A DNA stretch of 42,322 bases from IMG/VR virus record IMGVR_UViG_2541047730_000004; one strand, 5' to 3'. This stretch comes from a virus (taxonomy: Duplodnaviria; Heunggongvirae; Uroviricota; Caudoviricetes). Of the stretch, positions 11,244 through 27,585 are shown piece by piece (within the stretch, counting starts at the first letter, position 1; each line of letters begins with the position of its first letter). A program made the position numbers and the translations under genes. The notes under the pieces are model-generated. The model saw only the letters and a list, made by a program, of their open reading frames with translations. It did not search any database and was not told the origin of the DNA.

Positions 11244-11285
11244 GAAGAACAAAAGGCGTGTACATATTACACGTCTTTAATACAA

Positions 11286-11897: not shown

Positions 11898-11908
11898 AGG
11901 CGTTTAAC

Positions 11909-14900
11909 TCACCGCATCACCGGATCCACCTGGTTTATTAGTGGCGCAATCCAGAACAGGTTATTGCCTGGTATCAGAGTTCGGACATTATGCGCAATAC
12001 GATCACCGGCATCACCATTCAACACTCCTGCGGTCACATCAATGATGCTATCCGCAAGACCAAATGACGGTCCGAATAGAGATCCTACGAATCCACGACT
12101 GGCATACCTAGACTGTGTGCCAGTGCCAAATAAAGCCCCCAGCCCAACAGCACCACCAGTAGCCTTTTCAGCCATGTTGTTATATTCTATCAATGGCCCA
12201 AGAATACCGGATCTATCTATACCCTCAAGCACCAGCTTCTCTGGTGACCAGTCAACATTTTTCCCTTTCGATGCTTCTTTTAGCGCATAGACCAGTGAGC
12301 CAAGAGCAATCTGAAATGCAGTGCCATAATAAAATTGCGCAGTTCCTTCCTGTAACCCACCAAGTAGCGCACGGTTGTATGAAGCCGTTGTGAATGATTT
12401 AAACTGAAATATCGTTCGCCCCATTGGAGTACTCGCCCATAAAGGTGTGTCACCAATACCGGGGGTGATGATAGTGTTATTAACGTCTTTCAGAACCGCT
12501 GACTGGAATACTCCGGCAACGTACTGATCGTCCCATTTATCAAAGTTACCAATGTGCCATCCATCAATTACCTCACCATGTTTCTCGAACTCACTGCGAA
12601 TACGCGCAGCCATATTGTCGTTGATACCGAGTTTTGCCATGCGACGTGCAGAAAACGCACCGGACAAAATACCGTCTGACGTGAGCATTCCGTTCATGGA
12701 TTTGTTTATGTCATTAAATCGATCCATGAGTGTCAGCTTGCCGAAGGCATCAGTAATTCGCTCCATTCCTGCTTCGACTGCTGTTGTCCTGGAAGAACTG
12801 TCAACAAGATCACCAATTGCACGAGAACGTGAATGTAGTACAGCTTCCAATCCAATCCCCATCTTCAACATATCTTCTTTGCTGGCCTTAAATGCCGGTG
12901 ATTGGGATATCTGAGAAGCATAGCCTTTCATGGTGTTACGGAAACCATTAACCATAACCCCTCTGGCCAGATCTGGAATAGCTGATACTGTCATTCCACC
13001 GAGTTTGGTCGTGAAGTTCACATCCCGCAGAAAAGCGCCAGCACGAACAAAAAACGAAGACGGATCATCAGGCATCCCATATGTACCAACAAGACGATCG
13101 CGTAATGCTGTTATGTCTCTGAGATCATTTGCTCTTGATTTTGAAAGTCTGGACTGTTCTTTCCGTAATTCCTTTTCGTACTTTCGCATTAATGAATCGA
13201 GTTTACCCTGAGGAACAACTTCACCATTGCTCTCATAACGTGCTTTCAGATTTGCCACACTTTCGTCATATTTCGCCTTTATTTTTTCAGGCACTTCCCG
13301 TAACAGACTGTCATATTCGTCCTCAATTAATTGCAGACGCTCAGTCATAGTTCGTTTGCCAAATGTTCTCGTCAACTCAATTTCTGCTGCCGCTTCACGG
13401 ATATGACGTTGCAGCACGTAATTCACATCACTTTCAAGATAATCCCTGATAAGACTATCAGGAACATTTAATGTTCTTTCTTTCGTACTACCTGCGGCTT
13501 TTACAGAAAATACGCTGACAAAATCCTGTGGAACCTTAGCACCAGTAATTTTATTAATTACGATATCCGCTGCAATTTCAGCATCCTCAGGATCCAGTGT
13601 TTTATTTCCTCTCGACCACCAGTCAACCAAAATACGTCGAAATTTATCGCGTTCACTGATTATTTTTCCAACTTTATATATGCGTGGGAAATAGCTTGCC
13701 TGGCCTAATGCTTTCAGTTCTTCATCTGGCGGCAATAAACCAAGCTTTTGCATTTCAACTTTCACCCGATTTAATACAGTTCGCATCGCCTGCGCCGTTT
13801 CCTGAACAACAGGATTAGCATGCACATCACCGCTTCGCATAGCATTCCCAACCTGCTGACGAAATGAATCAAAACTCATGTCACCACCATCAGCTTTATA
13901 CTTTGCGTATGCCTGTTTATTTCCGACAACAACAGCAGCTTCTTCACGCTGCCATCCACGTGTACGGGTTTCTACAGCTACCGGTGTTTCAATCCCCCTT
14001 TCATTTCCTTTAAGGGTGAAATTATTTTCGGCTAACTCCAGCGTTGTTTTTCGCACCGTCTTGGACGGAGACTCCATTAACCTTGTCAAAGGAGTAAGAT
14101 AGCTCCCTGCTTTCCATGCAGCCTTTCCAACCCACCCACCGGAAACAGGGGTTAAATCATCCAGAGTCGCTGTATCAATTTTCATAGCACCAACACTACC
14201 ACCATCGGAAAGCGAAGCGGCAGCCCTGTCAGTCACTGATGTAATGCTCATATTATCAAGAGCATCAGCAACCTCACGTGTGGCTGCAGCCCGGACGGAT
14301 GGCGAAAGCGCAACACCAGCACTGGCAAACACGCCGCTCATCATCGCACCCGCTGCAACGTGAGCGGCACTTTCACCCCATGAGCGTGTTATTTGCTGAT
14401 TATTCAGTACAACCTCGCTTAATGCTGTACCGGCAGCACCAATCGCAATCTGTGAGCCAATACGCGCCAGTGCCCCTCCTTGAGCACCGGGAATAAACAT
14501 TGACGCAACAGTAACCGGATCCATTCCCGCAGCAATACTGGCAAGGGTTCCAACTACGCCAGCATCAGACAATAAACGTCTGTCTTCATTTTCATCATCT
14601 ATCTGCTGCTTAATCCACGCCGTTTCCTCTGGCGATCGGGAATCTGCAAATTTCGCCCCCCAGTATTCATAACCGTGCAACTCATTTTTATCAGCATATG
14701 GGTTATAACCCTCGACCGGTTCAAACTGTCTGGCTGGGCGGAAAAAACCAGACAGAATATTGTTCTGTCGCATTGCAGCCCCCCATACGGAAGGCTCAGG
14801 TGGCAATGGCTCAGGATTAGCCCCTTCCGGAAGGGCAACATCAAACCCAGTTTGTTCCGGCAAAACATTACCTGACGGGATCAGTCCGTTATTAAGATCT

Positions 14901-14923
14901 TCAGCTTGTGCATAAACTGGCAT
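11909..14923 (-). CDS. Internal virion (ejection/core) protein, T7 gp16-like position
   Basis: 1004 aa, last gene of the translationally coupled virion operon; start overlaps the upstream stop (TAATG). Confidence 0.6.
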   Translation of the reverse strand: MPVYAQAEDLNNGLIPSGNVLPEQTGFDVALPEGANPEPLPPEPSVWGAAMRQNNILSGFFRPARQFEPVEGYNPYADKNELHGYEYWGAKFADSRSPEETAWIKQQIDDENEDRRLLSDAGVVGTLASIAAGMDPVTVASMFIPGAQGGALARIGSQIAIGAAGTALSEVVLNNQQITRSWGESAAHVAAGAMMSGVFASAGVALSPSVRAAATREVADALDNMSITSVTDRAAASLSDGGSVGAMKIDTATLDDLTPVSGGWVGKAAWKAGSYLTPLTRLMESPSKTVRKTTLELAENNFTLKGNERGIETPVAVETRTRGWQREEAAVVVGNKQAYAKYKADGGDMSFDSFRQQVGNAMRSGDVHANPVVQETAQAMRTVLNRVKVEMQKLGLLPPDEELKALGQASYFPRIYKVGKIISERDKFRRILVDWWSRGNKTLDPEDAEIAADIVINKITGAKVPQDFVSVFSVKAAGSTKERTLNVPDSLIRDYLESDVNYVLQRHIREAAAEIELTRTFGKRTMTERLQLIEDEYDSLLREVPEKIKAKYDESVANLKARYESNGEVVPQGKLDSLMRKYEKELRKEQSRLSKSRANDLRDITALRDRLVGTYGMPDDPSSFFVRAGAFLRDVNFTTKLGGMTVSAIPDLARGVMVNGFRNTMKGYASQISQSPAFKASKEDMLKMGIGLEAVLHSRSRAIGDLVDSSSRTTAVEAGMERITDAFGKLTLMDRFNDINKSMNGMLTSDGILSGAFSARRMAKLGINDNMAARIRSEFEKHGEVIDGWHIGNFDKWDDQYVAGVFQSAVLKDVNNTIITPGIGDTPLWASTPMGRTIFQFKSFTTASYNRALLGGLQEGTAQFYYGTAFQIALGSLVYALKEASKGKNVDWSPEKLVLEGIDRSGILGPLIEYNNMAEKATGGAVGLGALFGTGTQSRYASRGFVGSLFGPSFGLADSIIDVTAGVLNGDAGDRIAHNVRTLIPGNNLFWIAPLINQVDPVMR

Positions 14924-17640
14924 TATTTAGATCCCCACGAAAAGTAATCTTTAAATTTGTCCATACGTTCGTTATGCAGGCGCTGATACTGCTCATCCAG
15001 AGCGCGATGCTTGTCTTTGAAGTTTCGTATAGCCTGTCCACGCATAATTTCTTCCTGCTCGTACTGCTCCCGTTCCTGCTGCATTTTCTTATAAGGTTCC
15101 CAATCTTCTAGTGATGGTTCCCAACGCATAGGACGCCCATGTTTGTTATAAAACGGCTGGACCCGATCGATGCCATTTTCATCCTTAGTTCTTACCATAA
15201 TGGCGTAATCACCATTACGGGGTGTTAACACGTCAGGGGTTATGAATAATTCTCCATTAATACGACTCTCAGGGGTTTTTGTCTCAACTACAGGAGCATT
15301 ACCTGACGTGATCCCAAGCAACGTCGGACTGGTTGTTATAATCTCTTTGCGCTCACCGTACATCAGCCGTTCTTTTTCAGCTTTCCACTGCGCCGCCTGC
15401 CAGCCTGACGGCCCATATTGATAAAGCGCCTCCGGTGCATATTTCATAAACTGCGCTTCTCCGTTAACCTCGCTGATACTCCAAGTGCGGGCTATCTGCT
15501 GGTTGGTCATTTGCTTCGCTACGTCAGCGTTACCACCAGCAACGCGGTAGTTAATGTCATACATCGTCTGATAGTCATTACGGAATCTAGCTGCTTCCGG
15601 CGTCTGGTCATCCGCAGACGGATCCCAACGGAACCACTGCGCCATATTGCTGACAGCAGAATTCATCGCCTTGCTGCGATCATTTTTGTACTCTTTTGAA
15701 CTCTGCGTTGATGCCAATTGAGCTTTAAGTGCATCGGTCTGGTTGTACGTAAGGTTCTGCGCCTGCTCGATAGCCGCATCAGCAGACATGCCAGAATCAG
15801 TTAGTTGCTTAACAGTCAGATAAAAACCCTGCATATCCTTCGGCATATTTCCAATAGATGCATTGTCTGTTTCATATAACCGACTAAACAGTTCCGCCGC
15901 ATTTTTAACCACTTCCTGATTGCTGGATCGGGATACTGCTGAAAGCTGCGTGATGACCTGCGAAGGCATTATGCCAGTCTGAGCCACAAGCCGAACAACC
16001 CCATCATGAGTGGAGACATCATTAATACGAAAGTTCTGCGCCATTTCTGTGTAATCAGCAGCTTTCTGCATTGACTTGTTGCTTGGGTCTAATTTTTCAC
16101 CTATTGTCAGCGCCTCATTGAATCTGCGTGAATCCCGTTGCGCCTGAATTGCTTCATTTGATCTCTGAAGCAATGCAGACAATTTTCCGTAAGCATCGAG
16201 TTTTAACGCATAGTGAGGATCGTTAACCTCAGGCTTCACTTTCTGCATTTCTTCTTGCTGCTGAGAAGGAGGCAAATACTGAATTGCCTGGAATATTCTC
16301 GCGTTATCAATCGCTATATCCAGTTGATTGATTATTTTATCTGCGTTTTTTCCATACCCCCTGATGATGGTCTCCTGAGCCGGTATATAATCTGGAACCT
16401 CACCGTTATATAGCTGGGCCATGGTGTTATTAATAGCTGGCTCAAGCTGTTCTAATATTAACTTCCTTTGCTTTTCTATCTGACTATTAGCAAGGTTATC
16501 TATTTGATAAATAGTCAGTGGATCCATTCCAGTTTTATTTTTTCTATATCGGGAAAGCCACCCTTGTGTTTCTGATGGAAGATTTCGGATAAATTCTTCT
16601 TCTGATATTTCACCTTTACGTGGATCACCGACTTTGGCGATCAGTTTATCCACGTTACCCATCCCCCAGTTATATGCTGCTCCGGTCAATATTTCTGAGC
16701 CGTACTTACCATACAGTTGATTTACATAGTCACTGGCAAGCATTTCATGCTGTTGTTCGTCCGTAGGGTTGTATTCAACGCCACGTTTGGCCGCCAGTTC
16801 TTTCCCTGTGCCCGGCATTAACTGGTATTTCCCCTGGGCCCTCTCTCCAGAAGATGTTTTCGGTCCTTCAAGAATACTACCATCAGGATTAAAATGACGA
16901 TCACCTGATTCAACAAGGCGTATGGCACGCATGTCCATGCCTCCAGAATCATTTTTCTGAAACTGACCATTTAACCATCCTTCCGGATTAGCAGCGGCAT
17001 AATTCTTCGCCCGCATTTCTGTGGCACTGCGATCATCACTTTCTATTTCTTCCAGAATGCGTTCTTGTGACCATCCCCTGGCTGCTCCATATCTGGCAAT
17101 GGCTACCATTCTGGAATTTCTGGCTAAAGTGGCAGTTTGCGGGTCATTCCAGGCATCCGCTTCATTTTGTATCCATAATTTTCTCGTTGCCTGATATTGC
17201 TCATCTTCATAGGCATTTGTCTGCCCTATCTCATGTCTGAGAACTCCAGTACTGAACTGAATTTTCTGTGTTCTGGCTTGTTGCAAAAACATATTTCTTG
17301 CTGCTTCATCAGTCAATGAAGCAGCTATTTCTTCCACATCCTGATCAAATCCAGATATGTACTCTTGCCCCTTACCAATCGCATTTTTGCCTTGTTGTGC
17401 ATAAAAACCGGTTTGAGGGTTATAAAGACGTTCATTGCTGCGCTGATTAAGCTGAAGGATGGCATCCTGAGACAATGCAACATTCGCTTTCTGCCTGGCT
17501 TCACCATATGCCACCGCATACTGATCTGCGACATTCGCCAGCACCTGACCTGCTTGAGGAACATCGAAGGTTTGAAAACCACCGGTTTGCACACCACGAC
17601 TTTGCACCTGGCGTCCGGATGTAGTAGGAACAACAGGCAT
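14923..17640 (-). CDS. Internal virion protein with lytic transglycosylase (SLT) domain
   Basis: Central segment AIRLVESGDRHFNPDGS...GKYQLMPGTGKEL...AYNWGMGNV matches the SLT catalytic-domain pattern (ES...Q.MP...Y.WG); 905 aa. Confidence 0.7.
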   Translation of the reverse strand: MPVVPTTSGRQVQSRGVQTGGFQTFDVPQAGQVLANVADQYAVAYGEARQKANVALSQDAILQLNQRSNERLYNPQTGFYAQQGKNAIGKGQEYISGFDQDVEEIAASLTDEAARNMFLQQARTQKIQFSTGVLRHEIGQTNAYEDEQYQATRKLWIQNEADAWNDPQTATLARNSRMVAIARYGAARGWSQERILEEIESDDRSATEMRAKNYAAANPEGWLNGQFQKNDSGGMDMRAIRLVESGDRHFNPDGSILEGPKTSSGERAQGKYQLMPGTGKELAAKRGVEYNPTDEQQHEMLASDYVNQLYGKYGSEILTGAAYNWGMGNVDKLIAKVGDPRKGEISEEEFIRNLPSETQGWLSRYRKNKTGMDPLTIYQIDNLANSQIEKQRKLILEQLEPAINNTMAQLYNGEVPDYIPAQETIIRGYGKNADKIINQLDIAIDNARIFQAIQYLPPSQQQEEMQKVKPEVNDPHYALKLDAYGKLSALLQRSNEAIQAQRDSRRFNEALTIGEKLDPSNKSMQKAADYTEMAQNFRINDVSTHDGVVRLVAQTGIMPSQVITQLSAVSRSSNQEVVKNAAELFSRLYETDNASIGNMPKDMQGFYLTVKQLTDSGMSADAAIEQAQNLTYNQTDALKAQLASTQSSKEYKNDRSKAMNSAVSNMAQWFRWDPSADDQTPEAARFRNDYQTMYDINYRVAGGNADVAKQMTNQQIARTWSISEVNGEAQFMKYAPEALYQYGPSGWQAAQWKAEKERLMYGERKEIITTSPTLLGITSGNAPVVETKTPESRINGELFITPDVLTPRNGDYAIMVRTKDENGIDRVQPFYNKHGRPMRWEPSLEDWEPYKKMQQEREQYEQEEIMRGQAIRNFKDKHRALDEQYQRLHNERMDKFKDYFSWGSK

Positions 17641-18218
17641 CAGTAACCTCCTATTTTGAATCGGGAGTCAGAATTCATAAAACCTGAGTTAGATAACATT
17701 GGCGTCCCACCACTAGATGTACTTCCTTTAGAGAACGGGCTCCACGTTCCGCCGCCCATCTGGTATGCACCGTATGCTTTTAGTGGTGCCGTTAACAAAG
17801 TGCTGGTCATCGATGATTTAGCAGCCGACTGAGCAGCAGCCCCCTGTGCCTGAGCATTCATTCCCTGAACCTGATACCCATATGCCTCACGCTGAGCATT
17901 ATTCACTGTCGTTAACGCATCAAGAGTGCCGAACTGAGCATTATCCGCAAAAACGTCAAGAGCTGTTCCGCTACTTAATTCCGCACCGGTAGCCCCCATA
18001 GTAGCCGCCGCAGTGCCTGAGCGTTGACGCATTTCACGACGACGCTGATCCGCTTCAATATTCCCACGATTGATTGAATCCTGTGCCTGAGCTTCAGCAA
18101 TTTCAGCATTCCGATCTGCTATGGCTGACTGGTATTTTGCCTGCTTGCTCTGGCTGTACATTGACGCTGCTGTGGATGCCACTGTGACGGCAACCAAAGC
18201 GATGGCTGGGTTACACAT
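17640..18218 (-). CDS. Internal virion protein (T7 gp14-like)
   Basis: N-terminus MCNPAIALVAVTVAS and Ala/Gln-rich composition resemble T7 gp14 as recalled; position after the tail-tube genes. Confidence 0.5.
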   Translation of the reverse strand: MCNPAIALVAVTVASTAASMYSQSKQAKYQSAIADRNAEIAEAQAQDSINRGNIEADQRRREMRQRSGTAAATMGATGAELSSGTALDVFADNAQFGTLDALTTVNNAQREAYGYQVQGMNAQAQGAAAQSAAKSSMTSTLLTAPLKAYGAYQMGGGTWSPFSKGSTSSGGTPMLSNSGFMNSDSRFKIGGY

Positions 18219-18682
18219 TATTTTCTCTCCATGTGAAATCTGTGGAAATTAAGACCAAGAGCACCATAAGGCGCGGCTTCTTCAAGCCTGAATCCAAGCC
18301 AGTGCAGCCATGCTTTGGCAACATGGTTTCGCTCGTCGACGTAGTTTTCCAGGCGCGGATAAACTGCCAGCATCTGCTGCAATACAGGTCGGCAGTGGCG
18401 AAGAAATGTCTTCTGATATTTTTCAATACGGCTGGTTCCGACCAGCCAGGGTGTACCATTGCCACCGATCATTGACGCCGGAGATACACCAAACATGGTT
18501 ACCAGTTCTCCGTTCGCGAACCCTGACCAGGCCATAGTCGCAGTGCGAAGACCAACACGCAGCGCATCTTCGGTAGTCATCAGCGATACCGCATACAGTT
18601 CGTCAATATCAGCCTGACGAACATCCGGCAAAATCATCTGAAGATGCTCTTCGGTGGCGGGAATAATTCGAACATCGATCAT
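18218..18682 (-). CDS. Virion-module protein (T7 gp13-equivalent position)
   Basis: 154 aa, translationally coupled between the tail tube B and gp14-like genes. Confidence 0.45.
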   Translation of the reverse strand: MIDVRIIPATEEHLQMILPDVRQADIDELYAVSLMTTEDALRVGLRTATMAWSGFANGELVTMFGVSPASMIGGNGTPWLVGTSRIEKYQKTFLRHCRPVLQQMLAVYPRLENYVDERNHVAKAWLHWLGFRLEEAAPYGALGLNFHRFHMERK

Positions 18683-21153
18683 CAGAATCCCCCAACAGTA
18701 AGACGAGGAATAACGGCAAGAACAGACAGCGGCAACGGGTCAAGCTGACGGATTCTTACACGTCCGTTTTTGCCCCAGTTACTGTCCAGTTTCACTTCTA
18801 CTTTTCCGGTAGCGTCATCAACAGGATCATCGTAGAACTCGAATTCACGCTGTGGATATTCGTACCATTTACCGCCGGGCGTAGTCGCCCAGATGCCACG
18901 ACTGGCATTCACAACCAGAGTAACGGACTGGATCACCTGTTTTTTGTCCAGCAGCGTTTCCTGTCCGTTAATGTTGATATCCAGTGTTTCGAATTCAGCA
19001 GTTATTGGCAGGCCGATGTGCACAACAGCCCCCGGTGATTCCAGCGTGACGGCACCTCCGGAAACCACTTTCTGTGGTTCCACGTTCGCATCAGAGAGAA
19101 TGTTTACGGTCTGGCCTTCAAGATGAGACAGGCCTCCAAATGTCCGGCGCGCCATCTGCCAGTTCGTGGTAGCCACATTCCTGAGGGATGGCGGGACGTT
19201 CCTGTTAGCACGAACCACTACAGCGGTATTGCTGGTTACAGAAATGATGTCGCAACGTAATTCTTTTGACACTTCATCGCCAGTATCAGGATCAGTTCCG
19301 GTATAAGGGAACTGTAGTTGCGCGCCGACATCACTACTGGTGAAGTACGCACCACCAGAAACACTGATTGTATATTCCGCACGGTAATCCCATTCACCAG
19401 AACCACCAGTGATGGTCATCGTTCTGTCAGACGTATTTCTTCCATCATAGCTAAGGCCAGAATCAACAAAGAAAGCATCTTCATCGCTGGTAAATAAACG
19501 GCTGGACAGTCGCTCTATGTATCTCACTGTTTGCCCGTTAACGGTTCGGTTAACGACGAAATACACCGCATCTTCATTGCCTTCGCTGATACTGCATGTG
19601 CTTTCATATTTTCCGGTACTGGATTGTGGTGCCCATGCAAAAACCTGCTGATCACGCAAATAGGTCATCACCAGTAATTTACCGTCATCACGAATGCAGA
19701 AGGCGCTGGAGTAAGGGACAATCGAGAAGCACCAGTCAACAATGCTGTGCTTCTGAAAAAGATGATTGGCAAGGATGGTCAGGTCGTTCCCCTGATAGCC
19801 GTCAACATCGAATGAGTAGGCCAGATCACGGACAACACTGCCTTTCTCCTGGACGAACAGAGCAATATTCGCCACGGCAATTGGTGGGACATTGCTCGAG
19901 CCATTTGATCCCTGAGAGCTGAATGCAAATGATGATGGGGTAAGCACTTTGTTCTGGTCGCCAGTGATGACGTACTCACCTCCGGAAGTCAGCGCCACCA
20001 GCGAACCAACATCAATCAGGTGACGGATCTCATTAACCTGACGCCCGGCATAGGTGTAGATAATTCTGTCGTCATCCTGCGTAGGATTGCTTTTGCCAAA
20101 ATCCTTATAATCCCCGGTACGGCTGGCCCAGATAGTCTGAGGGAACGCAGTCGATGCGGCGAAGTAAAGGCGTTGTTGATAATAAACAACAGTGCCAGGA
20201 TAACCGTTAATACTGTTCCAGGCATATTTAGCCCATTTATAGCTGGCATTATCCTCGCCAACTACCTGCGAAGGGATATAGGAAATCACCTCGGCAGTTG
20301 CAGTAGTTCCATTTGCAGCAGAGATACGGGCAATGCCAAAACCACTGTGCAGATACTCCCACTCAATGCCGGTATCATCATCACCGGATCCGCCCCAGCC
20401 ATCCCATGATGTGCCTTCTGTATGCGAAGGGCGCAAAGTGCCTGTTTTGCCTGCTGTAACGGCGCGATAGTAGTTACTGTCTGCACGGCGAATATCGCCA
20501 ATCGACGTACTCTTACTGGTTTCCCATACCGGCACAGAATCCACTGCAGGCTGTTCCAGATAGAACAATTTGCCTACCTGCTCCGCGCCAAAAATTGAGG
20601 CGCTTGCCGTTAACGTAATTGTCCCGGTGCTGGCGCTGGCATAAACCGTCACTGACTCGTCAATATTGATATCTTCAAATGGCCCGTTCTTCGTTACCAC
20701 ATCAACCAGTTGCCAGTTGTCATGCGCATAGCGGCGCAGCTCTTTCGGCGGGTATGCCGGGTGAACCAGCGTAAGCACGTCGGCGCTTTGCGTGAATTTA
20801 ATTCGGAACAGATCGGCTTCAGTATATGGCGTGGCAATTTCATAAATAACATTGCTGCTGTTCAGCACCAACGCACCATCTTTGATAACGCGCATGTACT
20901 GGTGTCCGAACTCCAGAGCATAGGTCTGAACCGTCGAGAACTGGAACGGGATCAGGCGGCATTTCCGATTTGGGTATTTGGCGGCACCGACAAAACGCGT
21001 ACCAGGTCGATTCTCAACGCCGCCATACTGCCGCACGATAAAGTTATCGCACTTGCGCAATGCCACCTGGTACTTCGCCATGTCGATACGACCGTACAAC
21101 GACGGTCCAATCTCACCACCGGCAAAGCTGGGCTGGATCCAACTGATAGCCAT
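18682..21153 (-). CDS. Tail tubular protein B-like (nozzle)
   Basis: 823 aa immediately after the gp11-like gene; size and position as in T7-like podoviruses. Confidence 0.6.
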   Translation of the reverse strand: MAISWIQPSFAGGEIGPSLYGRIDMAKYQVALRKCDNFIVRQYGGVENRPGTRFVGAAKYPNRKCRLIPFQFSTVQTYALEFGHQYMRVIKDGALVLNSSNVIYEIATPYTEADLFRIKFTQSADVLTLVHPAYPPKELRRYAHDNWQLVDVVTKNGPFEDINIDESVTVYASASTGTITLTASASIFGAEQVGKLFYLEQPAVDSVPVWETSKSTSIGDIRRADSNYYRAVTAGKTGTLRPSHTEGTSWDGWGGSGDDDTGIEWEYLHSGFGIARISAANGTTATAEVISYIPSQVVGEDNASYKWAKYAWNSINGYPGTVVYYQQRLYFAASTAFPQTIWASRTGDYKDFGKSNPTQDDDRIIYTYAGRQVNEIRHLIDVGSLVALTSGGEYVITGDQNKVLTPSSFAFSSQGSNGSSNVPPIAVANIALFVQEKGSVVRDLAYSFDVDGYQGNDLTILANHLFQKHSIVDWCFSIVPYSSAFCIRDDGKLLVMTYLRDQQVFAWAPQSSTGKYESTCSISEGNEDAVYFVVNRTVNGQTVRYIERLSSRLFTSDEDAFFVDSGLSYDGRNTSDRTMTITGGSGEWDYRAEYTISVSGGAYFTSSDVGAQLQFPYTGTDPDTGDEVSKELRCDIISVTSNTAVVVRANRNVPPSLRNVATTNWQMARRTFGGLSHLEGQTVNILSDANVEPQKVVSGGAVTLESPGAVVHIGLPITAEFETLDININGQETLLDKKQVIQSVTLVVNASRGIWATTPGGKWYEYPQREFEFYDDPVDDATGKVEVKLDSNWGKNGRVRIRQLDPLPLSVLAVIPRLTVGGF

Positions 21154-21761
21154 CAGGACAACCTCGCAATGGTAAACTCGTCAACCGGTGGCTGTGGTTC
21201 CTGTGATTCATTCTGGCTATGCGAGCCAGCACTAAGAATCACGCGATTGTACATATTGAGGGCAAACGTACCGAGGTCTGCATTCCCAGTCAGCGCCATG
21301 TTAATAGCTGCCGCAAGACGCCAGGCCAACGCCTCCATAAAAATGGCATCAAACATGTTCACATCTGAAACGCGAGAGACATACTTGAGCCATGCCTGCG
21401 GCTGGTCTGTGTAGATCAACTTTCCTGTTCCGTCGGTGTCTGCACCAACTTCGTACTGAACGCGCATTGCTGCTGTTGGATTGCGAACACCGGGAAGCAT
21501 GATTTCAGTGATGCGCAGGCAATCAGACGGGTACTGATACGCATACGCCCAGTCAGGCGGTGGATTGCTCGTATCTGCAAGCGCCACGCGTTTGGTAGCA
21601 AAGTTCCAGTCAAAATCAGAAAGCACAGCATCACGACAGGCATCGAAATGCAGGGAACACTCCCCCGCCTCTTTGCTGGCCTCAGTCAGGCTATTGATGC
21701 TGCGACTGTTGCCGATATTCGACAGCGCGCGGTTGCAGATCTCGACAACAGAAGCCATCAC
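21153..21761 (-). CDS. Tail tubular protein A-like (gp11-like adaptor)
   Basis: 202 aa; N-terminus (ICNRALSNIGNS...SLTE) resembles the gp11 N-terminus as recalled; gene order. Confidence 0.55.
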   Translation of the reverse strand: MMASVVEICNRALSNIGNSRSINSLTEASKEAGECSLHFDACRDAVLSDFDWNFATKRVALADTSNPPPDWAYAYQYPSDCLRITEIMLPGVRNPTAAMRVQYEVGADTDGTGKLIYTDQPQAWLKYVSRVSDVNMFDAIFMEALAWRLAAAINMALTGNADLGTFALNMYNRVILSAGSHSQNESQEPQPPVDEFTIARLS

Positions 21762-22087
21762 TCACCCCCGTTACCGTAAAGGGTTTCAGCAGCGGATTTA
21801 TCCGGCTCGCCGGTTGCAGGTGCGATCGCCATGTCGGTGATCTGCAGGTCTGCGCTACGGTTAACGCCGTCATCAGTTTCGCGGGCAGACAGTCCGCGAA
21901 TTACCGCCTTAGCAGTAATCATCACTTCGGTTCCTACACCCTGCGGTTGCGCCTTGAGCTTATTCAGCGTGTCATTGTTCAACGTGATGCAAAGCCCCCA
22001 TGGATATTCGTCGCGGTTTTTGGTTTCTCCGCTCTCGTCCTGGTAGCTGTCGGTGCCGGTTTTGAGGTTGACCAGTTCCATATACAC
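21758..22087 (-). CDS. Hypothetical virion-module protein
   Basis: ORF translationally coupled within the structural operon. Confidence 0.45.
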   Translation of the reverse strand: MYMELVNLKTGTDSYQDESGETKNRDEYPWGLCITLNNDTLNKLKAQPQGVGTEVMITAKAVIRGLSARETDDGVNRSADLQITDMAIAPATGEPDKSAAETLYGNGGE

Positions 22088-22131
22088 TCCTGCAATAAAG
22101 GGGCCGAAGCCCCTTGTCTGATACGCGAGGC

Positions 22132-22467
22132 TTACACGCCCAGTTCTTTGCGCTTATCTGCGATTTTCTCGCGAAGCGTTTCGGCTTTGGCGTTATGGTG
22201 CGGCTTCTCGTTAAAGAGCAGTTCATACTCTTCGCGGATCTTATCCAGATCGCCATCTTCGGCTGCATCGTTGATGGGTTTGGCACTGGTTACGGTTTCT
22301 GCTGCTTTACCTGTAACCTTTGCTTTCGCCGCCTTCGCTGCATCGTTGATGGGCTCCAGTGCACTACCTGGCTCGCCGTCGTATTCAATTTCAGAGCCCT
22401 CCGGCCACAGGTTATTGTGGATATGAGAGAGGCGCAGAACGCGGTACTTCGGTTTCTCACCTGACAT
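22132..22467 (-). CDS. Hypothetical virion-module protein
   Basis: ORF in the structural operon; charged, Ala/Lys-rich. Confidence 0.45.
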   Translation of the reverse strand: MSGEKPKYRVLRLSHIHNNLWPEGSEIEYDGEPGSALEPINDAAKAAKAKVTGKAAETVTSAKPINDAAEDGDLDKIREEYELLFNEKPHHNAKAETLREKIADKRKELGV

Positions 22468-22477
22468 CGATATCCCC

Positions 22478-22915
22478 TTAGCCGGTTACTTTGGAGCGGA
22501 TCGGATACGGCGTATTTGCATCAACATCTAGGTTAATGCCGGAAGTGAATTTGCCGGCCGTTAGTGGGCCAGTTGCGACGGAGTAGTTAACACGCAGATA
22601 TCGCTGAACACCGGCAGGCACCTTTGCAGAAACAACTCGTTTACCTGCTGTCAGGGTAGCCTTTGCCAGTGCGCCACTATCATAAATAGTGGACCATGAG
22701 CTGTTATTCTCACTCGTCTGCAACTGGATGTTTACAGTTGCCTCACCACTTGCCGTGGCGGCTTCGTTAACCAGCGCCCAAAACTCAAGCGGGTAACCCA
22801 CGCCGATATCGCGACGATTTCCATCAATTGGACCTAGATCGATTACGTCAGTAGAAGCCGCGGTATCAGTTACCGCCTGTGCTTCGGAGAACATCAACAG
22901 TTTGTCGGTGATCAT
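22478..22915 (-). CDS. Hypothetical structural protein (possible decoration/adaptor)
   Basis: 145 aa directly downstream of the major capsid gene. Confidence 0.45.
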   Translation of the reverse strand: MITDKLLMFSEAQAVTDTAASTDVIDLGPIDGNRRDIGVGYPLEFWALVNEAATASGEATVNIQLQTSENNSSWSTIYDSGALAKATLTAGKRVVSAKVPAGVQRYLRVNYSVATGPLTAGKFTSGINLDVDANTPYPIRSKVTG

Positions 22916-22966
22916 CTTCTTTCTCCATTAGTGGGTCTGTTACGACCCACTGGTTAATAACAGGCG

Positions 22967-23959
22967 TTACACCACACGGGCTTCTGTTTCCAGAAGCGCA
23001 TCAGTTTCACGGATTGGTACACCACGGAATGAAGTCCACCACTCGCCTTCTGTCTCTTTTACGCTGATCGCCAGAGATGTTTTCTCCAGAGATTGCAGAT
23101 CAAGAGCCTGGCCTACAGTGCGGTTCATGTAGAACACCGGGCGACCCATTCCACGGTTTGGAATGCGATGCAGTGCTTTAACCATCAACTTCGCAATATT
23201 TGCGGCAGAGGAAGGTTCTGAAAGATTGCTGACATCGATGTTTGCAATGCGAACAACATAACGCCAGTCACGCAGAGCAAGTCCGTTGTCCCATTTGTAA
23301 TGGGTGCGATAGCCTTCGTACTTGCCGCCATTAGCATCTTCCAGTGTCACCTGGCCTTTATCTTCCATCTGGATGCCAGCCTTCTGCCCTTTCGGGAAGA
23401 TGCCATGCACGGTGTTTTCGCCCCACACCACTAACCAGATTGAGGTGTTATCTGTACCCGTGCCACCAGCATCAATGATGTTCTGAGCATTACCCGCAGA
23501 CAGGCTGGAATAGCGGGAGGACAGTCCCATAAACTGCTGAGGGTTAACGCTGGAATCACCATAAAACAGTGTCTGCGCCATCTGCTGATTCATCGCTTCA
23601 ATAAATGCGCGGTCTTCAGACAGGCGGAATTCGGCGGTATTACCGTTCAGATCAGCCAGTGACTTATCGACTTCAGCATAGGTTTCCAGCATGCCAACGG
23701 AATCGGTGACCTGCACTGTGGTTGATTTGCTTGGCTGTACACCATAGTTCAGCAAACGCCAGGTAGCTGAAGGTAAACCAGAACGAATGGTGGTTCGGTG
23801 TCCGGTAGGAAGGTTCCCTTCGACAAAAGGCATATCCTGAAGGATCGGGTTAGTTTGACCGAGAAGCTCGATAATCTTATCGACTTTCCCGTTTGGATCG
23901 ACGCGCTTACCCCAGTCAGCCAGCGTTAGCGCAGTTAAGCCTTTAACAGCCATTGTCAT
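22967..23959 (-). CDS. Major capsid protein
   Basis: 330 aa directly after a scaffold-like gene and downstream of the portal; composition and size typical of HK97-fold podovirus capsid proteins. Confidence 0.75.
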   Translation of the reverse strand: MTMAVKGLTALTLADWGKRVDPNGKVDKIIELLGQTNPILQDMPFVEGNLPTGHRTTIRSGLPSATWRLLNYGVQPSKSTTVQVTDSVGMLETYAEVDKSLADLNGNTAEFRLSEDRAFIEAMNQQMAQTLFYGDSSVNPQQFMGLSSRYSSLSAGNAQNIIDAGGTGTDNTSIWLVVWGENTVHGIFPKGQKAGIQMEDKGQVTLEDANGGKYEGYRTHYKWDNGLALRDWRYVVRIANIDVSNLSEPSSAANIAKLMVKALHRIPNRGMGRPVFYMNRTVGQALDLQSLEKTSLAISVKETEGEWWTSFRGVPIRETDALLETEARVV

Positions 23960-23967
23960 TTCCTCTC

Positions 23968-24669
23968 TTATTTGCCATAGAGCACTTCGGCCGCACTACG
24001 CTGGCCTTCATTACCACCGGTGACCATGCCATCTTCAGACATCGCCTTTCCGATTTTCACGAACGTTTTGACCAGATCAGGGTGATTACCCAGCCCGGTG
24101 GTGTTCAGATATTCTTTGAGTTCAGGTGTCCCGAACTGGTCAAGCGCACGCTGTGCGGCGCTAAGGTTAGAAATCAACTTGTCGCCACCGATTTCTTTGT
24201 CAGCTTTTACATCCGCAGCCCACTGCTCGGTTGTTTTCTGCCAGGCTTCTACCTGGCGCTGCTGAACACCTGCCAGAATCTTCGGATAAGCATCAACCAG
24301 CTTTTGCGCTTGCTCGTTGGTCAGGTTTAGTTCTCGCGCCACCGGCTCGAATTCCTTCAACGCTTCTGTATCCAGCTCTACGCCTTCGGCAGCCTGAAAC
24401 TCGTACTTCTCAGGCGCACCCTCTGGTTTATCGCCGTCCTTTTTTTCATCCTGCTTATCGTTTTCAGGATTTTTGTCATCAGCAGGTTTATCGCCATCAG
24501 CAACAGGTTGTGACTTATCACCTTCCGGTTGTGATGGATCACCAACTGGAGCATGGTTATCACCTGCAGGCGCTGACGGTTCTGACGCAGCCGGAGCTGC
24601 TCCACCATCGACTGGTTGCTCATTGCAAAGACGGCGATACAGCAAACGCTCAAATAAATTCATGATCAC
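23968..24669 (-). CDS. Scaffolding protein
   Basis: Acidic, Pro/Asp/Lys-rich low-complexity N-terminus followed by helical segments; located between portal and capsid. Confidence 0.65.
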   Translation of the reverse strand: MIMNLFERLLYRRLCNEQPVDGGAAPAASEPSAPAGDNHAPVGDPSQPEGDKSQPVADGDKPADDKNPENDKQDEKKDGDKPEGAPEKYEFQAAEGVELDTEALKEFEPVARELNLTNEQAQKLVDAYPKILAGVQQRQVEAWQKTTEQWAADVKADKEIGGDKLISNLSAAQRALDQFGTPELKEYLNTTGLGNHPDLVKTFVKIGKAMSEDGMVTGGNEGQRSAAEVLYGK

Positions 24670-24962
24670 TCCTGTTCACTGGCCTCTTTGGCCATCTTCA
24701 AATACTGTTCAGGGCAATGCGCCATAACGCGCTGAAACAGTTCCAGCGCCAGATTGCGTTGCCCCTCATTAAATGCCATTGCCATAGCGTCCATCGGTGA
24801 GATAGCGGAAAACACACGGCCTTTCTCCAGCACCGACCAGACAACGCGACGCCCCTGTTCACTGCTCATGACAAAGCGAATGTCATCAATTTCACGCTGC
24901 GCCATGTCACGTTGCTTACGGGCGTTTTCTTCTTTCAGTTGATCGTCTTCGTAATCTGTCAT
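24666..24962 (-). CDS. Hypothetical small protein between portal and scaffold
   Basis: 98-aa ORF, translationally coupled. Confidence 0.45.
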   Translation of the reverse strand: MTDYEDDQLKEENARKQRDMAQREIDDIRFVMSSEQGRRVVWSVLEKGRVFSAISPMDAMAMAFNEGQRNLALELFQRVMAHCPEQYLKMAKEASEQE

Positions 24963-26638
24963 TGTGATTGCCCACCCTGACCACTAACTGCATTCGCCAT
25001 AGCTGACAACACACTCGGATCCGAAGTTTTAGCTTCGCTTAGCGTCTTGGCCCCCTGTGCCGCCGCCATCCCCATCGCCATCATTTGTTGCTGCTGTTGT
25101 TGCTGTGCCCGTTGCTGGCGAGCCTGCTCAACCTGTTCCTGCGGAACAATGACGGTTGGAGACACTCCGGACATATCAGCGAATGCATCGATCGCCTGAT
25201 CAACGTTGAGTTTGTCGAGAGCTTCTGGTTTCGCTTGCGCAAGTTGACCAATGAAGTTAACCGTGGACGCCAGACTGGACAGGCCGATAGACTTCTGCGC
25301 CTGAGCCATGACGGAAATGTATTCGACCTTCAGGGGCATGCCTTCCATCGCGTCAGGCGGTGGCGGCAGCATGTTTTTGCGCACCATCATCGAGAAAGCG
25401 CGGTCAATGAGAGGATTAAGACATTCGTCGTTCAGACGCTCCAGAACCGGCCCCAACATCAGAAGTTTTTCTTCTTTCATTTCGATCACCGCTTCAACAG
25501 GCATCGAGCGGGTATTGATGTTCTGCAACATCATGAACAGATCGACAAAGTAGGCGCTGTTAATGATTTGACGAGTGTCCTGAATGTCTGCCACCAAATC
25601 TGCTGTACTGGGGTTAACCAGATAAGCAGGCCTGAAGCCATCCTGACCAGTAATCTGATCGATATACGTGATGTCGCCAGGAAGAAGGGAGGCGCGCTGA
25701 TTCTTGAGGGAAGTCGGAGCAACCATCGGCGGATTGGTGGCTTTATCAATCAACTGCGACTTGCGCTTCTGGAGAAGCTGCAATGCCTTAACAGGTCCAA
25801 GCGCCAGCATACCCGGGCATGATGATCCATAAACATCTTCGCCGTTAACTTCCCAGCGCGGAGCCATAATTGGAAACTCATCGAATCCGGACTCACGCAA
25901 CAACTTGTCGTTATCTCCACCAACCTCGTAATAAACCGATTTGAATGGCTTGTTCTTGCTATCCAGCTTCGATGTATCGCGGTCAATGTTCGGGTAAACC
26001 GAATGCATCACTTCGATCCACTTCTCGTAGGTGCCGCTTTCCCACATGCTTTTTACGGATTCGCTGACGTTATTTAGCCCGAACTCCTGAACAAGCTGAC
26101 GAACAGTCATAGAGAACTTGCGAAAACAGGTGTCAACACTGCCACGAGGTGAGTTAGCCAGGTAGTAACTGCCTATCGGGAATGGCATTGTGCGAATGAT
26201 GTCCTCGTCATCCTCCAGCACTGCCATTGCACCAGTGCTGTATGTGCCGAGGCTTCCGTATAACTGCGGAAGAGACTGGTAGAGATTCGACTTATTGAAC
26301 ATATCGTTCATGCGGTTCTGAACTGCCTCAAGCCACAACTTAACAGGGCCATAATCCATCATTTCAGGATCTGGCGTAGCCAGGCGAAACCACGGACGCG
26401 CGGGGCTTGTGATGCCTGACATCATGCCGCTGGCGAGAGTGCGCGCCGCCATAGTCCCGGTCGAATCAATAATGCGTGTATTGCGCCGATCGTTACGGTT
26501 GGCCTCAGAAGTCAGAAAGCGGGAACCACGCGGGTTGATGTAATCACTCAACTCGCGCCAGTGCGGCTCGAACGACTGACGCTCGCTTTCAAGTTGTGCG
26601 AACTGTTTGTTCAATCGCTCTTTAGTTGTTTCCGCCAT
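24959..26638 (-). CDS. Portal (head-tail connector) protein, T7 gp8-like
   Basis: 559 aa; N-terminus MAETTKERL... and the Q/A/M-rich C-terminal tail (QQQQQQQMMAMGMAAAQGA) resemble T7-type connectors; first gene of the virion operon. Confidence 0.75.
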   Translation of the reverse strand: MAETTKERLNKQFAQLESERQSFEPHWRELSDYINPRGSRFLTSEANRNDRRNTRIIDSTGTMAARTLASGMMSGITSPARPWFRLATPDPEMMDYGPVKLWLEAVQNRMNDMFNKSNLYQSLPQLYGSLGTYSTGAMAVLEDDEDIIRTMPFPIGSYYLANSPRGSVDTCFRKFSMTVRQLVQEFGLNNVSESVKSMWESGTYEKWIEVMHSVYPNIDRDTSKLDSKNKPFKSVYYEVGGDNDKLLRESGFDEFPIMAPRWEVNGEDVYGSSCPGMLALGPVKALQLLQKRKSQLIDKATNPPMVAPTSLKNQRASLLPGDITYIDQITGQDGFRPAYLVNPSTADLVADIQDTRQIINSAYFVDLFMMLQNINTRSMPVEAVIEMKEEKLLMLGPVLERLNDECLNPLIDRAFSMMVRKNMLPPPPDAMEGMPLKVEYISVMAQAQKSIGLSSLASTVNFIGQLAQAKPEALDKLNVDQAIDAFADMSGVSPTVIVPQEQVEQARQQRAQQQQQQQMMAMGMAAAQGAKTLSEAKTSDPSVLSAMANAVSGQGGQSQ

Positions 26639-27286: not shown

Positions 27287-27363
27287 GTGGCATTAGCTCA
27301 GTTGGACAGAGCAACCGCCTTCTAAGCGGTTGGTCGCAGGTTCGAATCCTGCATGCCACGCCA
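27287..27363 (+). tRNA. tRNA-Arg (anticodon UCU, reads AGA)
   Basis: Cloverleaf by hand: acceptor GTGGCAT/ATGCCAC, D-arm GCTC..GAGC, anticodon stem ACCGC/GCGGT with loop CTTCTAA, T-arm GCAGG-TTCGAAT-CCTGC, discriminator G, encoded CCA. Confidence 0.85.
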
Positions 27364-27550: not shown

Positions 27551-27565
27551 GCTTGATGACCGCAA

Positions 27566-27582: not shown

Positions 27583-27585
27583 ATC

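Follow-up and report, generated by a model that had tools for sequence, protein, structure and literature searches.

Thirteen minus-strand genes very probably forming the virion operon of an epsilon15-like Escherichia coli prophage

The window, meaning the whole 42,322 nt stretch of DNA analysed here, contains between positions 11,909 and 26,638 thirteen contiguous minus-strand ORFs that leave no space over. None of them is truncated, their packing is so tight that stop and start codons overlap, and 12 of the 13 products could be assigned to Pfam, PHROG or NCBIfam families (Table 1). Terminase genes lie upstream of this block, while an immI-like region, a tailspike gene, a tyrosine integrase gene and one copy of an attachment core are found elsewhere in the window.

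Table 1. Features of the window, with family matches and amino acid identities to epsilon15 proteins
Feature	Position (strand)	Length	Family match or other characteristic	Identity to epsilon15
Left copy of attachment core, AATCATTCCCACTCAAT	1164-1180 (+)	17 bp	Prophage boundary	
Tailspike (outside 11909-26638)	3495-6470 (-)	991 aa	phrog_1171 'tail spike protein'	70% to gp20 anchor domain (N-terminal 230 aa)
immI-like block	9513-11243			
ant	9513-10451 (-)			
Arc-like ORF	10524-10727 (-)			
Mnt-like gene	10782-11243 (+)			
T7 gp16-family internal virion protein D	11909-14923 (-)	1004 aa	phrog_342, E 3e-209; without SLT domain	
Large internal protein at gp15 position	14923-17640 (-)	905 aa	Lytic transglycosylase domain about 224-354, catalytic Glu244	42% to gp15 (N-terminal 252 aa)
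T7 gp14-family core/ejection protein	17640-18218 (-)	192 aa	PF24072 T7_gp14, E 1.5e-8	
T7 gp13-like internal virion protein A	18218-18682 (-)	154 aa	phrog_308, E 2e-62	62% to gp13
Nozzle ('tail tubular protein B')	18682-21153 (-)	823 aa		88%
Adaptor ('tail tubular protein A' position)	21153-21761 (-)	202 aa	phrog_394 'tail protein', E 2e-87	86% to gp11
gp10-like capsid staple/decoration protein	21758-22087 (-)	109 aa	PF21628, E 2e-49	41% to gp10
gp9-like protein	22132-22467 (-)	111 aa	phrog_590, E 6e-57	39% to gp9
Bbp16-family capsid cement protein	22478-22915 (-)	145 aa	PF21190, E 1e-47	36% to gp8
Major capsid protein, epsilon15 gp7/BPP-1 Bbp17 type	22967-23959 (-)	330 aa	PF20911, E 2e-149	43% to gp7
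Probable scaffolding protein	23968-24669 (-)	233 aa	Position between portal and capsid genes	
Bbp19-like small protein	24666-24962 (-)	98 aa	PF25181, E 3e-17	66% to gp5
Portal protein, T7 gp8 family	24959-26638 (-)	559 aa	PF12236, E 9e-188; phrog_332, E 2e-253	80.5% to gp4
Terminase, both subunits	28401-30547 (-)		phrog_2; PF03592 Terminase_2, E 1e-29	
Terminase large subunit	28401-29876 (-)			95% to gp2
Terminase small subunit	29873-30547 (-)			77% to gp1
Tyrosine integrase	41072-42322 (-)		Arm-DNA-bind_3 (PF13356), Phage_int_M (PF22022), Phage_integrase (PF00589)	

T7 gp8 reciprocally matches the Pfam family and both PHROGs of the portal protein (PF12236; phrog_332/449), and comparison of families with hhalign gave a probability of 96.6% (E 5e-10) against T7 gp8 and 0.2% against P22 gp1; the solved portal of the phage Carin-1 (PDB 8ck0) is also a match (E 2e-179). 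By contrast, the major capsid protein matches the epsilon15 gp7 equivalog NF045672 (E 9e-124) and is unrelated by hhalign to the families of T7 gp10 (PF21703) and P22 gp5. The neighbouring decoration genes likewise have epsilon15 counterparts, although identity across the capsid gene block is just 36-43%; in BPP-1 the jellyroll cement protein is Bbp16 (PMC3863775), and the gp10-like product is named 'capsid staple protein' by PGAP. Four small head genes were missing from the gene list of the original prediction.

The 233 aa protein is publicly annotated as 'peptidase/protease', and the PHROG that it matches, phrog_458, is labelled 'protease', a description originating in the annotation of epsilon15 gp6 as 'similar to LT2 putative endoprotease'. 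However, 40 diverse members of the protein's family matched no protease family, no Ser, His or Cys is conserved, and the AF2 model consists of a disordered acidic N-terminus (residues 1-81) and an all-helical C-terminal domain with no strands, albeit with only moderate confidence (mean pLDDT 59, about 78 in the helical domain, from a shallow alignment). Foldseek found no match to this model in the PDB, and no homology to T7 was detected. The capsid protein of BPP-1 is uncleaved (PMC3863775). The product probably represents a helical scaffold, and the 'peptidase' label is probably wrong.

The tail proteins are similarly related to those of T7 at a distance. The predicted structure of the nozzle (pLDDT 92.5) was matched along its full length by T7 gp12 in Foldseek (E about 1e-23, TM 0.50-0.54), an E-value 15 orders of magnitude better than that for P22 gp10 (E 3e-8, TMq 0.31), and aligned over 535-550 residues with T7-type nozzles, as against 404 with Sf6 gp8; the P22-type hub has the same beta-propeller core. 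Comparison with the gp12 family by hhalign gave 84%. The nozzle is predicted to adopt the fold of T7 gp12 along its whole length, and the solved nozzles nearest to it are those of Carin-1, a phage of the marine bacterium Cobetia marina (PDB 8CK0/8CK1; 44-46% identity), and the Legionella phage LME-1 (PDB 9EFK; 16-22%), which have unrelated hosts and differ from the window in capsid decoration and fibres. The portal, connector and nozzle solved for Carin-1 are all sequence relatives of window proteins. The adaptor, which also matches phrog_9239 'tail tubular protein' (E 3e-17), is related to the Carin-1 connector (8ck1_E, E 6e-27) and to LME-1 orf17 (E 6e-6), which we take to be the adaptor of that phage. 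Direct comparison of the adaptor with the T7 gp11 family was at noise level (hhalign 2.6%), and the link to gp11 is drawn instead from the HHpred match to T7 gp11 (3j4b) reported in the RefSeq note on epsilon15 gp11, from the homology to Carin-1 and LME-1, and from the close resemblance of the LME-1 and Carin-1 tails to that of T7 (PMC12407071).

Four internal-protein genes follow the nozzle gene, rather than the three originally counted, and one does encode the transglycosylase domain foreseen. T7 gp13 falls into the same PHROG as the 154 aa protein (E 1e-42), which gave 97.0% (E 1e-10) in hhalign against the T7 gp13 family and 0.1% against P22 gp14. The match of the 192 aa protein to PF24072, a family also matched by T7 gp14, exceeds the curated cut-off; hhalign returned 53.7% (E 1e-4) against T7 gp14 and 0.5% against P22 gp7, and PGAP names the protein 'virion core protein, T7 gp14 family'. 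The 905 aa protein contains an SLT domain (PF01464, residues 260-342, E 1e-7) that aligns with the N-terminus of T7 gp16 (hhalign 93.8%, E 2e-7). The catalytic motif is intact: E244, within an 'ES' motif, is aligned with T7 gp16 E37, and both GxxQ and AYNxG are retained. Beyond the 252 residues held in common with epsilon15 gp15, the protein is unrelated to gp15, and hhalign detected no homology to T7 gp15 or P22 gp20; it is gp15-like by position and size only. The 1004 aa protein covers positions 203-1225 of the 1235 in the phrog_342 profile, whereas T7 gp16, with an SLT domain at residues 15-127, covers 4-1227. Its C-terminal 250 aa match gp16 homologues of Autographiviridae (Ralstonia phages RSB1 and RsoP1IDN; tblastn E 1e-7 to 2e-8), although hhalign against the T7 gp16 family was weak (6.8%, E 5e-3), and BLASTP gave no matches to epsilon15 gp16 or gp17. 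Large internal proteins number three in epsilon15 (gp15, which bears the SLT domain, gp16 and gp17) and two here.

Outside the block, several original descriptions needed revision. A tailspike had been placed within the interval, but it lies past the immI-like block, bearing C-terminal End_tail_spike and Peptidase_S74 chaperone domains; were the 1004 aa ORF the spike intended, its product is instead gp16-like. The terminase, thought to be lambda-type, matches no lambda terminase family and is of the Terminase_2/phrog_2 type. Replication is lambda-like only in its P homologue (PF06992), the initiator being of the DnaT/HTH_36 type and not lambda O. The P22-type immI region is borne out: the Mnt-like gene (30% identity to the P22 mnt region) diverges from the Arc-like ORF, followed by ant, whose product (P22_AR_N, E 3e-45) is 40% identical to P22 Ant, and the block separates the last ejection gene from the spike, an arrangement also seen in P22. 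TL-2011b gp41 is annotated as an 'Arc-like repressor'; epsilon15 lacks an mnt/arc/ant block. The integrase fits the P4-type description in its three-domain architecture. In E. coli AHB29 it adjoins guaA, beside which, 191 bp past the window end, lies the second copy of the attachment core, present once in the window. Matches to free-phage genomes begin at position 1164, and positions 1-1163 are host DNA.

The closest relatives are a prophage in E. coli AHB29 (NZ_OZ547246), 99.8% identical over 100% of the interval, and phage TL-2011b (NC_019445/JQ011317), 97.5% identical over 96%. Both have the gene order of the whole window, insertion by guaA, and the 905 aa SLT and 1004 aa gp16-like proteins (the latter at 99.3% amino acid identity); the AHB29 prophage is flanked by yfgI and guaA with the 17 bp att repeat. 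They differ in the receptor-binding part of the tailspike and in several accessory genes, in the portal-terminase slot and on the immI side, with only 67-69% of the flanks covered, at 94-97% identity; the gp14-like protein is 181 aa long in TL-2011b. From the portal gene to the gp13-like gene, phiV10 (96.5%), PAS61 and ZX5 are 96-97% identical to the interval, and the remainder of the window is collinear with these three and TL-2011b too. Epsilon15 itself, a Salmonella phage placed with Escherichia phage phiV10 in the genus Uetakevirus, has patchy megablast similarity (21% of the interval at 78% identity), yet its gp1-gp15 and gp20 have gene-for-gene counterparts in the window; collinearity with both epsilon15 and phiV10 runs from the terminase as far as the gp14-like gene and includes the tailspike anchor domain. 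TL-2011b has been labelled a Uetakevirus (PMC11522302), but is an unclassified member of Caudoviricetes in the NCBI taxonomy. Taken together, these sequence comparisons make it very probable that the interval holds the entire late (virion) operon of a temperate, epsilon15-like podovirus of the TL-2011b lineage, which is integrated in E. coli between yfgI and guaA; no evidence against the epsilon15-like identification was found. Of the 5426 complete E. coli genomes, 564 gave a match, and the virion block, correctly outlined originally, is an ordinary example of a common, already described (Uetakevirus) prophage type.

The block might alternatively belong to a decaying, non-functional prophage remnant, since it sits integrated in a chromosome and TL-2011b-type ejection genes occur in only 45 of the 564 matching genomes. 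This appears improbable given the condition of the 13 ORFs, the AHB29 copy having no pseudogene flags in the block, and the presence of an integrase, lysis cassette, terminase, tailspike and both attachment cores; furthermore, the close relatives ZX5 and PAS61 are described as isolates, and phiV10 was deposited as a phage genome.

Less probable still is the reading of the genome as a noteworthy chimera of recent origin, its lambdoid/P22-like temperate backbone having received a T7-type virion cassette. The gene order from portal to gp16 does follow that of T7 gp8-gp17, as first proposed (portal, scaffold, capsid, adaptor, nozzle, gp13, gp14, gp15 position, gp16); four families are common to both (PF12236 with phrog_332/449, phrog_308, PF24072 and phrog_342), the nozzle has a gp12-type fold, and the backbone carries a lambda P-like gene, RecET, a CI-type repressor and P22-like Ant, Mnt, EaA and Ead. 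The 'T7-type' description applies only to portal, tail and ejection proteins, and not to the epsilon15/BPP-1-type capsid with its two extra decoration-type genes, the scaffold or the 905 aa protein. The window also differs from T7 in being temperate, without a phage RNA polymerase, in its terminase being upstream of the portal, in having tailspikes rather than gp17 fibres, and in having two further small genes. No T7 match was found by tblastn at E<1e-4 and pairwise scores were at noise level, so the kinship is ancient rather than the result of a recent graft; the nozzle family alone comprises 18,321 clusters at 50% identity. The T7 relationship has been published since 2016, the distant kinship of the tail and injection proteins being already documented. 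A T7-related virion does stand beside P22-like immunity genes, but the same pairing of backbone and virion persists in epsilon15, phiV10, TL-2011b and prophages of E. coli in their hundreds. The genus is already known from publications to have this layout as its norm, so it is not a new mosaic; the label 'strongly mosaic', with its suggestion of something unusual, is not supported, and the recent-chimera reading is largely refuted already. A P22-type virion module (gp1/gp5/gp4/gp10/gp26, gp7/gp20/gp16), which would suit the P22-like site of the immI block and the inclusion of P22 by Hardies et al. in the same deep homology group ('transient tail'), has next to no likelihood and is already refuted at the family level: no window protein matches the PHROG or Pfam families of P22 gp1/8/5/4/10/26/14/7/20/16, every P22 counterpart scored at most 0.5% in hhalign, the portal is PF12236 rather than PF16510, and there is no gp26-type needle gene. 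P22 and this phage are alike in being temperate podoviruses of enterobacteria, with Ant, EaA and Ead homologues.

By analogy with work on T7 and epsilon15, the terminase of this epsilon15-like phage would package DNA via the portal into an HK97-fold shell, assembled on the putative helical scaffold and reinforced by the gp10-type staple, possibly together with the Bbp16-type cement protein. The portal would be closed by a dodecameric adaptor and a hexameric nozzle, which would bear six O-antigen-specific tailspikes, encoded apart. Within the head, the gp14-like, gp15-position and gp16-like proteins may form a portal-bound core, with the gp13-like protein as an assembly factor; epsilon15 has a T7-like core stack implicated in ejection-tube formation (PMC8954989). 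On adsorption the core proteins would be ejected by way of the nozzle, peptidoglycan would be cut by the SLT domain of the 905 aa protein, and the ejected proteins would form a transient envelope-spanning channel for DNA. T7 likewise has an SLT domain among its ejected proteins. The lineage of this phage carries a swapped pair of ejection proteins, in which the transglycosylase belongs to the protein at the gp15 position and not to gp16.

The phage in the window is identified by its sequence as an epsilon15-like temperate podovirus of the Uetakevirus/TL-2011b lineage. The sequence is a near-identical copy of the published Escherichia phage TL-2011b (NC_019445), which belongs to a well-known phage type: in megablast comparisons, TL-2011b matched the virion gene interval (11909-26638) at 97.5% identity over 96% of its length, and phiV10, PAS61, ZX5 and phiv142-3 matched at 96-97% identity from the portal gene through the gp13-like gene, the matches to the first three comprising 57% of the interval. 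The flanks of the window are likewise collinear with TL-2011b, phiV10 and their kin, at 94-98% identity over 67-79%. One-to-one BLASTP matches, in conserved order, were found to epsilon15 gp1, gp2, gp4-gp15 and the anchor domain of gp20; the capsid protein scored 413 bits against the NF045672 equivalog (cut-off 75), and the scores of the capsid protein against PF20911 and of the staple protein against PF21628 were far above the cut-offs. Epsilon15, phiV10 and PAS61 are Uetakevirus species in the taxonomy and ZX5 has been described as a Uetakevirus; TL-2011b has been labelled Uetakevirus (PMC11522302) and is unclassified in the NCBI taxonomy.

Temperate features comprise integrase domains, an HTH_3 repressor-like gene and chromosomal integration. 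Among 5426 complete E. coli genomes, 564 contained a match, the best being strain AHB29 (NZ_OZ547246), which is 99.8% identical across 100% of the interval and in which the element is a prophage with yfgI on one side and guaA on the other. A 17 bp direct repeat, AATCATTCCCACTCAAT, forms the left att core in the window, with a second copy by guaA just past the window end. As free-phage genomes match only from position 1164, positions 1-1163 are host DNA. The host genes at the window start are yfgH and yfgI, which the TL-2011b RefSeq record labels as phage gp54 and gp55 ('DUF5384 family protein' and 'DNA methyltransferase').

The interval is filled by 13 close-packed ORFs on the minus strand, with stop and start codons overlapping in many, and from the sequence we read these as a real gene block, with chance ruled out. 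Searches of Pfam, PHROG and NCBIfam connected all of them except the 233 aa protein to a role or a named epsilon15/BPP-1 protein, the NCBIfam scan of the virion proteins supplying names for the capsid protein alone.

Features of the window, with hhalign results for virion protein families against their T7 counterparts
Feature	Coordinates	Strand	Length	T7 counterpart	hhalign result
Portal	26638-24959	-	559 aa	gp8	96.6%, E 5e-10
Bbp19-like	24962-24666	-	98 aa		
Scaffold position	24669-23968	-	233 aa	gp9	nothing
Major capsid protein	23959-22967	-	330 aa	gp10A	nothing
Bbp16-like cement	22915-22478	-	145 aa		
Epsilon15 gp9-like	22467-22132	-	111 aa		
gp10-like staple	22087-21758	-	109 aa		
Adaptor	21761-21153	-	202 aa	gp11	2.6%, noise level
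Nozzle	21153-18682	-	823 aa	gp12	83.8%, E 8e-6
gp13-like	18682-18218	-	154 aa	gp13	97.0%, E 1e-10
gp14-like	18218-17640	-	192 aa	gp14	53.7%, E 1e-4
gp15 position, with SLT domain	17640-14923	-	905 aa	gp15	nothing
gp16-like	14923-11909	-	1004 aa	gp16	6.8%, E 5e-3
yfgH (host)	1-516				
yfgI (host)	~532-1072				
Left att core	1164-1180		17 bp		
Tailspike	3495-6470	-			
ORF	6946-7674		242 aa		
AntA/B antirepressor	8074-8730				
ORF	11286-11897		203 aa		
tRNA-Arg (anticodon TCT)	27287-27363				
Coiled-coil ORF	27514-28404		296 aa		
HTH_3 repressor-like gene	36639-37223				

The original prediction was of a T7-type virion module within a lambdoid/P22-like temperate genome, and the T7 and P22 genomes were used as references for pairwise, family and profile comparison. 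When all virion proteins of the window were compared pairwise with T7 and P22 proteins by BLASTP and phmmer, no match was significant, so that profiles and structures were needed. Using tblastn, no window ORF matched the T7 late region, and matches to P22 were confined to ant, the mnt region, eaA and eaD, together with antisense shadow ORFs over eaA/ant. A recent graft from T7 is rejected, pairwise and tblastn similarity to T7 being absent.

By contrast with the pairwise searches, several families link the module to T7: PF12236 is common to T7 gp8 and the window portal, which also have reciprocal PHROG matches (phrog_332/449), phrog_308 is common to T7 gp13 and the 154 aa protein, PF24072 to T7 gp14 and the 192 aa protein, and phrog_342 to T7 gp16 and the 1004 aa protein. 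None of the window proteins matched the Pfam or PHROG families of ten P22 virion proteins, including the P22-type portal family PF16510, and none had such a family in common with the P22-type gp4/gp10/gp26 tail or gp7/gp20/gp16 ejection proteins. Family alignments for hhalign were drawn from 80 IMG/VR relatives of the module, 19 T7-like loci and 80 P22-like loci. Since the family matches are all on the T7 side, and each of the seven P22 counterpart pairs reached at most 0.5% in hhalign, a P22-type virion module is rejected. The tail and ejectosome are T7-like, not P22-like. The outcome is a tested map, on which the description 'T7-type' holds in family or fold for the portal, nozzle, gp13, gp14 and gp16 proteins and fails for the capsid, decoration proteins, scaffold and terminase. 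T7-like phages (Autographiviridae) also encode a single-subunit RNA polymerase and are strictly lytic, whereas the window phage has an integrase and a repressor-like gene; no phage RNA polymerase was matched in Pfam or PHROGs by any window ORF of at least 250 aa.

The nozzle ('tail tubular protein B') was also compared by structure. As the relatives from the homologue search were all close (at least 82% identity), its alignment was built from 50%-cluster representatives; the AlphaFold2 model, based on 54 diverse family members, had a mean pLDDT of 92.5. In Foldseek searches of the PDB, the model matched the nozzles of Carin-1 (TM 0.91) and LME-1 (TM 0.66), T7-type nozzles including T7 gp12 (E 1e-23 to 1e-25, TM 0.50-0.54 under both normalisations) and P22 gp10 (E 3e-8, TMq 0.31). 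The modelled protein is thereby assigned to the full-length T7 gp12 type. The T7-type nozzle and the shorter P22-type hub have a propeller core in common, so these 'types' are branches of one superfamily. A strong match between epsilon15 gp12 and T7 gp12 has been reported, with P22 in the same deep group as epsilon15 and T7 (Hardies et al. 2016, PMC4819975), and the LME-1 and Carin-1 tails have been called T7-like (PMC12407071). Searching the PDB with a profile of the nozzle family led to Carin-1, LME-1, the cyanophage A4 'tail tubular protein B' and a 'nozzle gp13', and not directly to T7 gp12 or P22 gp10. A search of 1.84 billion representative proteins (E<=0.001) placed 18,321 clusters at 50% identity in the family; many of its members exceed the window nozzle by 100-300 aa and carry insertions after approximately residue 100-300 of that protein. 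A 2025 paper on epsilon15 packaging contains nothing on the scaffold, adaptor or nozzle.

The head is of a different kind. The capsid protein is of the epsilon15 gp7/BPP-1 Bbp17 type, for which a variant topology of the HK97 fold has been described (PMC3863775), and reached 0.4% in hhalign against the T7 gp10A family. The window phage has genes for a Bbp16-type cement protein and a gp10-type staple protein, both lacking in T7, and the T7 capsid and scaffold families, PF21703 (gp10-type) and PF05396 (gp9), are not those of the window proteins. Within the capsid sub-block (21758-23959, minus strand), the capsid, Bbp16-like, gp9-like and gp10-like proteins are only 36-43% identical to those of epsilon15, compared with 80-88% for the portal, adaptor and nozzle on either side. 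A cement protein of the BPP-1 type and a staple protein of the epsilon15 type are encoded in this one operon.

The 233 aa protein is publicly labelled 'protease', 'peptidase' or 'endoprotease', a label originating with epsilon15 gp6, 'similar to S. typhimurium LT2 putative endoprotease'. A prohead protease encoded between the portal and capsid genes is rejected: no Pfam or NCBIfam protease family was matched by this protein or by 40 diverse relatives, the family has no conserved Ser, His or Cys, its sole invariant residue being a proline, and the structural model, made on a shallow alignment as the homologue search gave only relatives of 70-97% identity, consists of an acidic, disordered N terminus and an all-helical C-terminal domain without strands, with no structural match in the PDB. 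The capsid proteins of BPP-1 are uncleaved (PMC3863775). With moderate confidence, it is probably a scaffolding protein, as originally predicted, and this is the better label. A hint comes from the T7 scaffold family PF05396, which three of the 40 relatives touch below threshold (best E 0.006); the hhalign value against the T7 gp9 family was 0.1%, T7 gp9 and P22 gp8 family HMMs gave only noise against the scaffold family, and a PDB sequence search with its profile returned nothing. Showing the widespread 'peptidase/protease' label on this gene, located between those for portal and capsid, to be unsupported is one practical yield of the analysis, alongside the map of T7-like parts and the cassette exchange of the ejection proteins; if the scaffold assignment is true, a 'peptidase' family annotated in thousands of enterobacterial genomes is a scaffolding protein.

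The ejection proteins are where the window departs from phiV10- and epsilon15-type phages, the megablast matches to the phiV10 type ending at the gp13/gp14 boundary (window ~18214). By BLASTP, the 905 aa protein has only its first 252 aa in common with epsilon15 gp15, and the 1004 aa protein does not match epsilon15 gp16 or gp17; epsilon15 has three large internal proteins, whereas the TL-2011b lineage has two, the equivalents of gp16 and gp17 being replaced by the 1004 aa protein. The lytic transglycosylase (SLT) domain of the 905 aa protein, the relatives of which are visibly modular, can be aligned to the SLT domain at the N terminus of T7 gp16 (hhalign 93.8%) and retains Glu244 (equivalent to T7 Glu37) and the GxxQ and AYNxG motifs. 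Conversely, the 1004 aa protein spans phrog_342 positions 203-1225, corresponding to T7 gp16 minus its SLT domain. This boundary, along with an SLT domain on the 905 aa protein and its absence from the 1004 aa protein, points to a swapped ejectosome cassette in which the opposite partner bears the muralytic domain. On balance, then, the TL-2011b lineage seems to have undergone an exchange at the gp13/gp14 boundary that replaced the large ejection proteins of an otherwise conserved epsilon15-type virion operon with another set of two. Coverage of at least 80% of the interval was found in only 45 of the 564 matching E. coli genomes.

After TL-2011b, the nearest cultured relatives of the 1004 aa protein are in a Klebsiella prophage (36%) and ~32 kb marine Vibrio podophages (32%), and tblastn weakly connects its C terminus to gp16 proteins of Autographiviridae. 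The 905 aa protein lies in the position of gp15; in hhalign, segments from its N and C termini scored at most 1.6% against the T7 gp15 family and gave only noise against T7 gp15/gp16 and P22 gp20/gp16. PDB sequence searches found generic SLT matches alone for the 905 aa protein and none for the 1004 aa protein. An earlier study was likewise unable to confirm a gp15 (IVP-C) homologue in the epsilon15 family, and in epsilon15 it identified counterparts of the T7 internal virion proteins A, B and D (Hardies et al. 2016, PMC4819975). If the cassette works with an unchanged portal, nozzle and gp13-like protein, ejectosomes would be interchangeable cassettes docked by a short, conserved domain at the N terminus, and nothing would tie the muralytic domain to either the gp15 or the gp16 type of protein; such exchange could help host-range engineering or the study of ejectosome docking to the portal.

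The family memberships come from the present comparisons, and the following steps of assembly and ejection are proposed by homology with T7 and epsilon15. The capsid protein would assemble on the scaffold around a dodecameric portal, the terminase would fill the head, and staple or cement proteins would reinforce the shell. The adaptor and a hexameric nozzle would seal the portal and hold six tailspikes, with the gp14-like, 905 aa and gp16-like proteins forming a core on the portal. After adsorption, these core proteins would be ejected, cutting peptidoglycan and forming a trans-envelope conduit. The discovery value is small: roughly one in ten complete E. coli genomes has prophages of this kind, and the affinities of this phage type to T7 are known from the literature and in part from annotation. 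A deep T7-like ancestry for tail and internal proteins of the epsilon15 group was described in 2016 (PMC4819975), and current annotation includes, for instance, 'virion core protein, T7 gp14 family'.

Overall, the observation behind the original prediction was essentially right, with corrections, and its interpretation partly right. The terminase, called lambda-type, is of the Terminase_2/phrog_2 type (a PDB sequence search with the large subunit found nothing), and the distal tailspike gene lies outside the virion interval that was said to include it. By contrast, the proposed P22-type immI region is present, separating the spike gene from the last of the ejection genes; in it a Mnt-like gene is divergent from an Arc-like ORF, which is followed by ant, in the position and orientation seen in P22; Ant matches P22_AR_N (E 3e-45) and is 40% identical to P22 Ant, and the Mnt-like protein is 30% identical to its P22 counterpart. 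Replication genes comprise a lambda P homologue and a DnaT/HTH_36 initiator, and the integrase has the Arm-DNA-bind_3 architecture.

The tailspike is chimeric, joining an epsilon15-type anchor (first 230 aa, 70% identical to gp20) to a different receptor-binding body, carries a C-terminal endosialidase-type intramolecular chaperone domain (Peptidase_S74, residues 860-922) and is encoded in a region of low G+C (0.40-0.43). Between the portal and terminase genes, where TL-2011b and epsilon15 have other small genes, are a tRNA-Arg gene and, on the opposite strand, a 296 aa coiled-coil ORF; when ten accessory ORFs were run through PADLOC, the only matches were weak coiled-coil ones to this ORF (DndD, LmuB), leaving a defence function unsupported. 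Beyond mnt, arc and ant, positions 6600-11900 contain a second antirepressor, AntA/B, and several uncharacterised ORFs, those of 203 aa and 242 aa among them. G+C falls to 0.39-0.40 over ~10-13 kb, which suggests acquired accessory genes.
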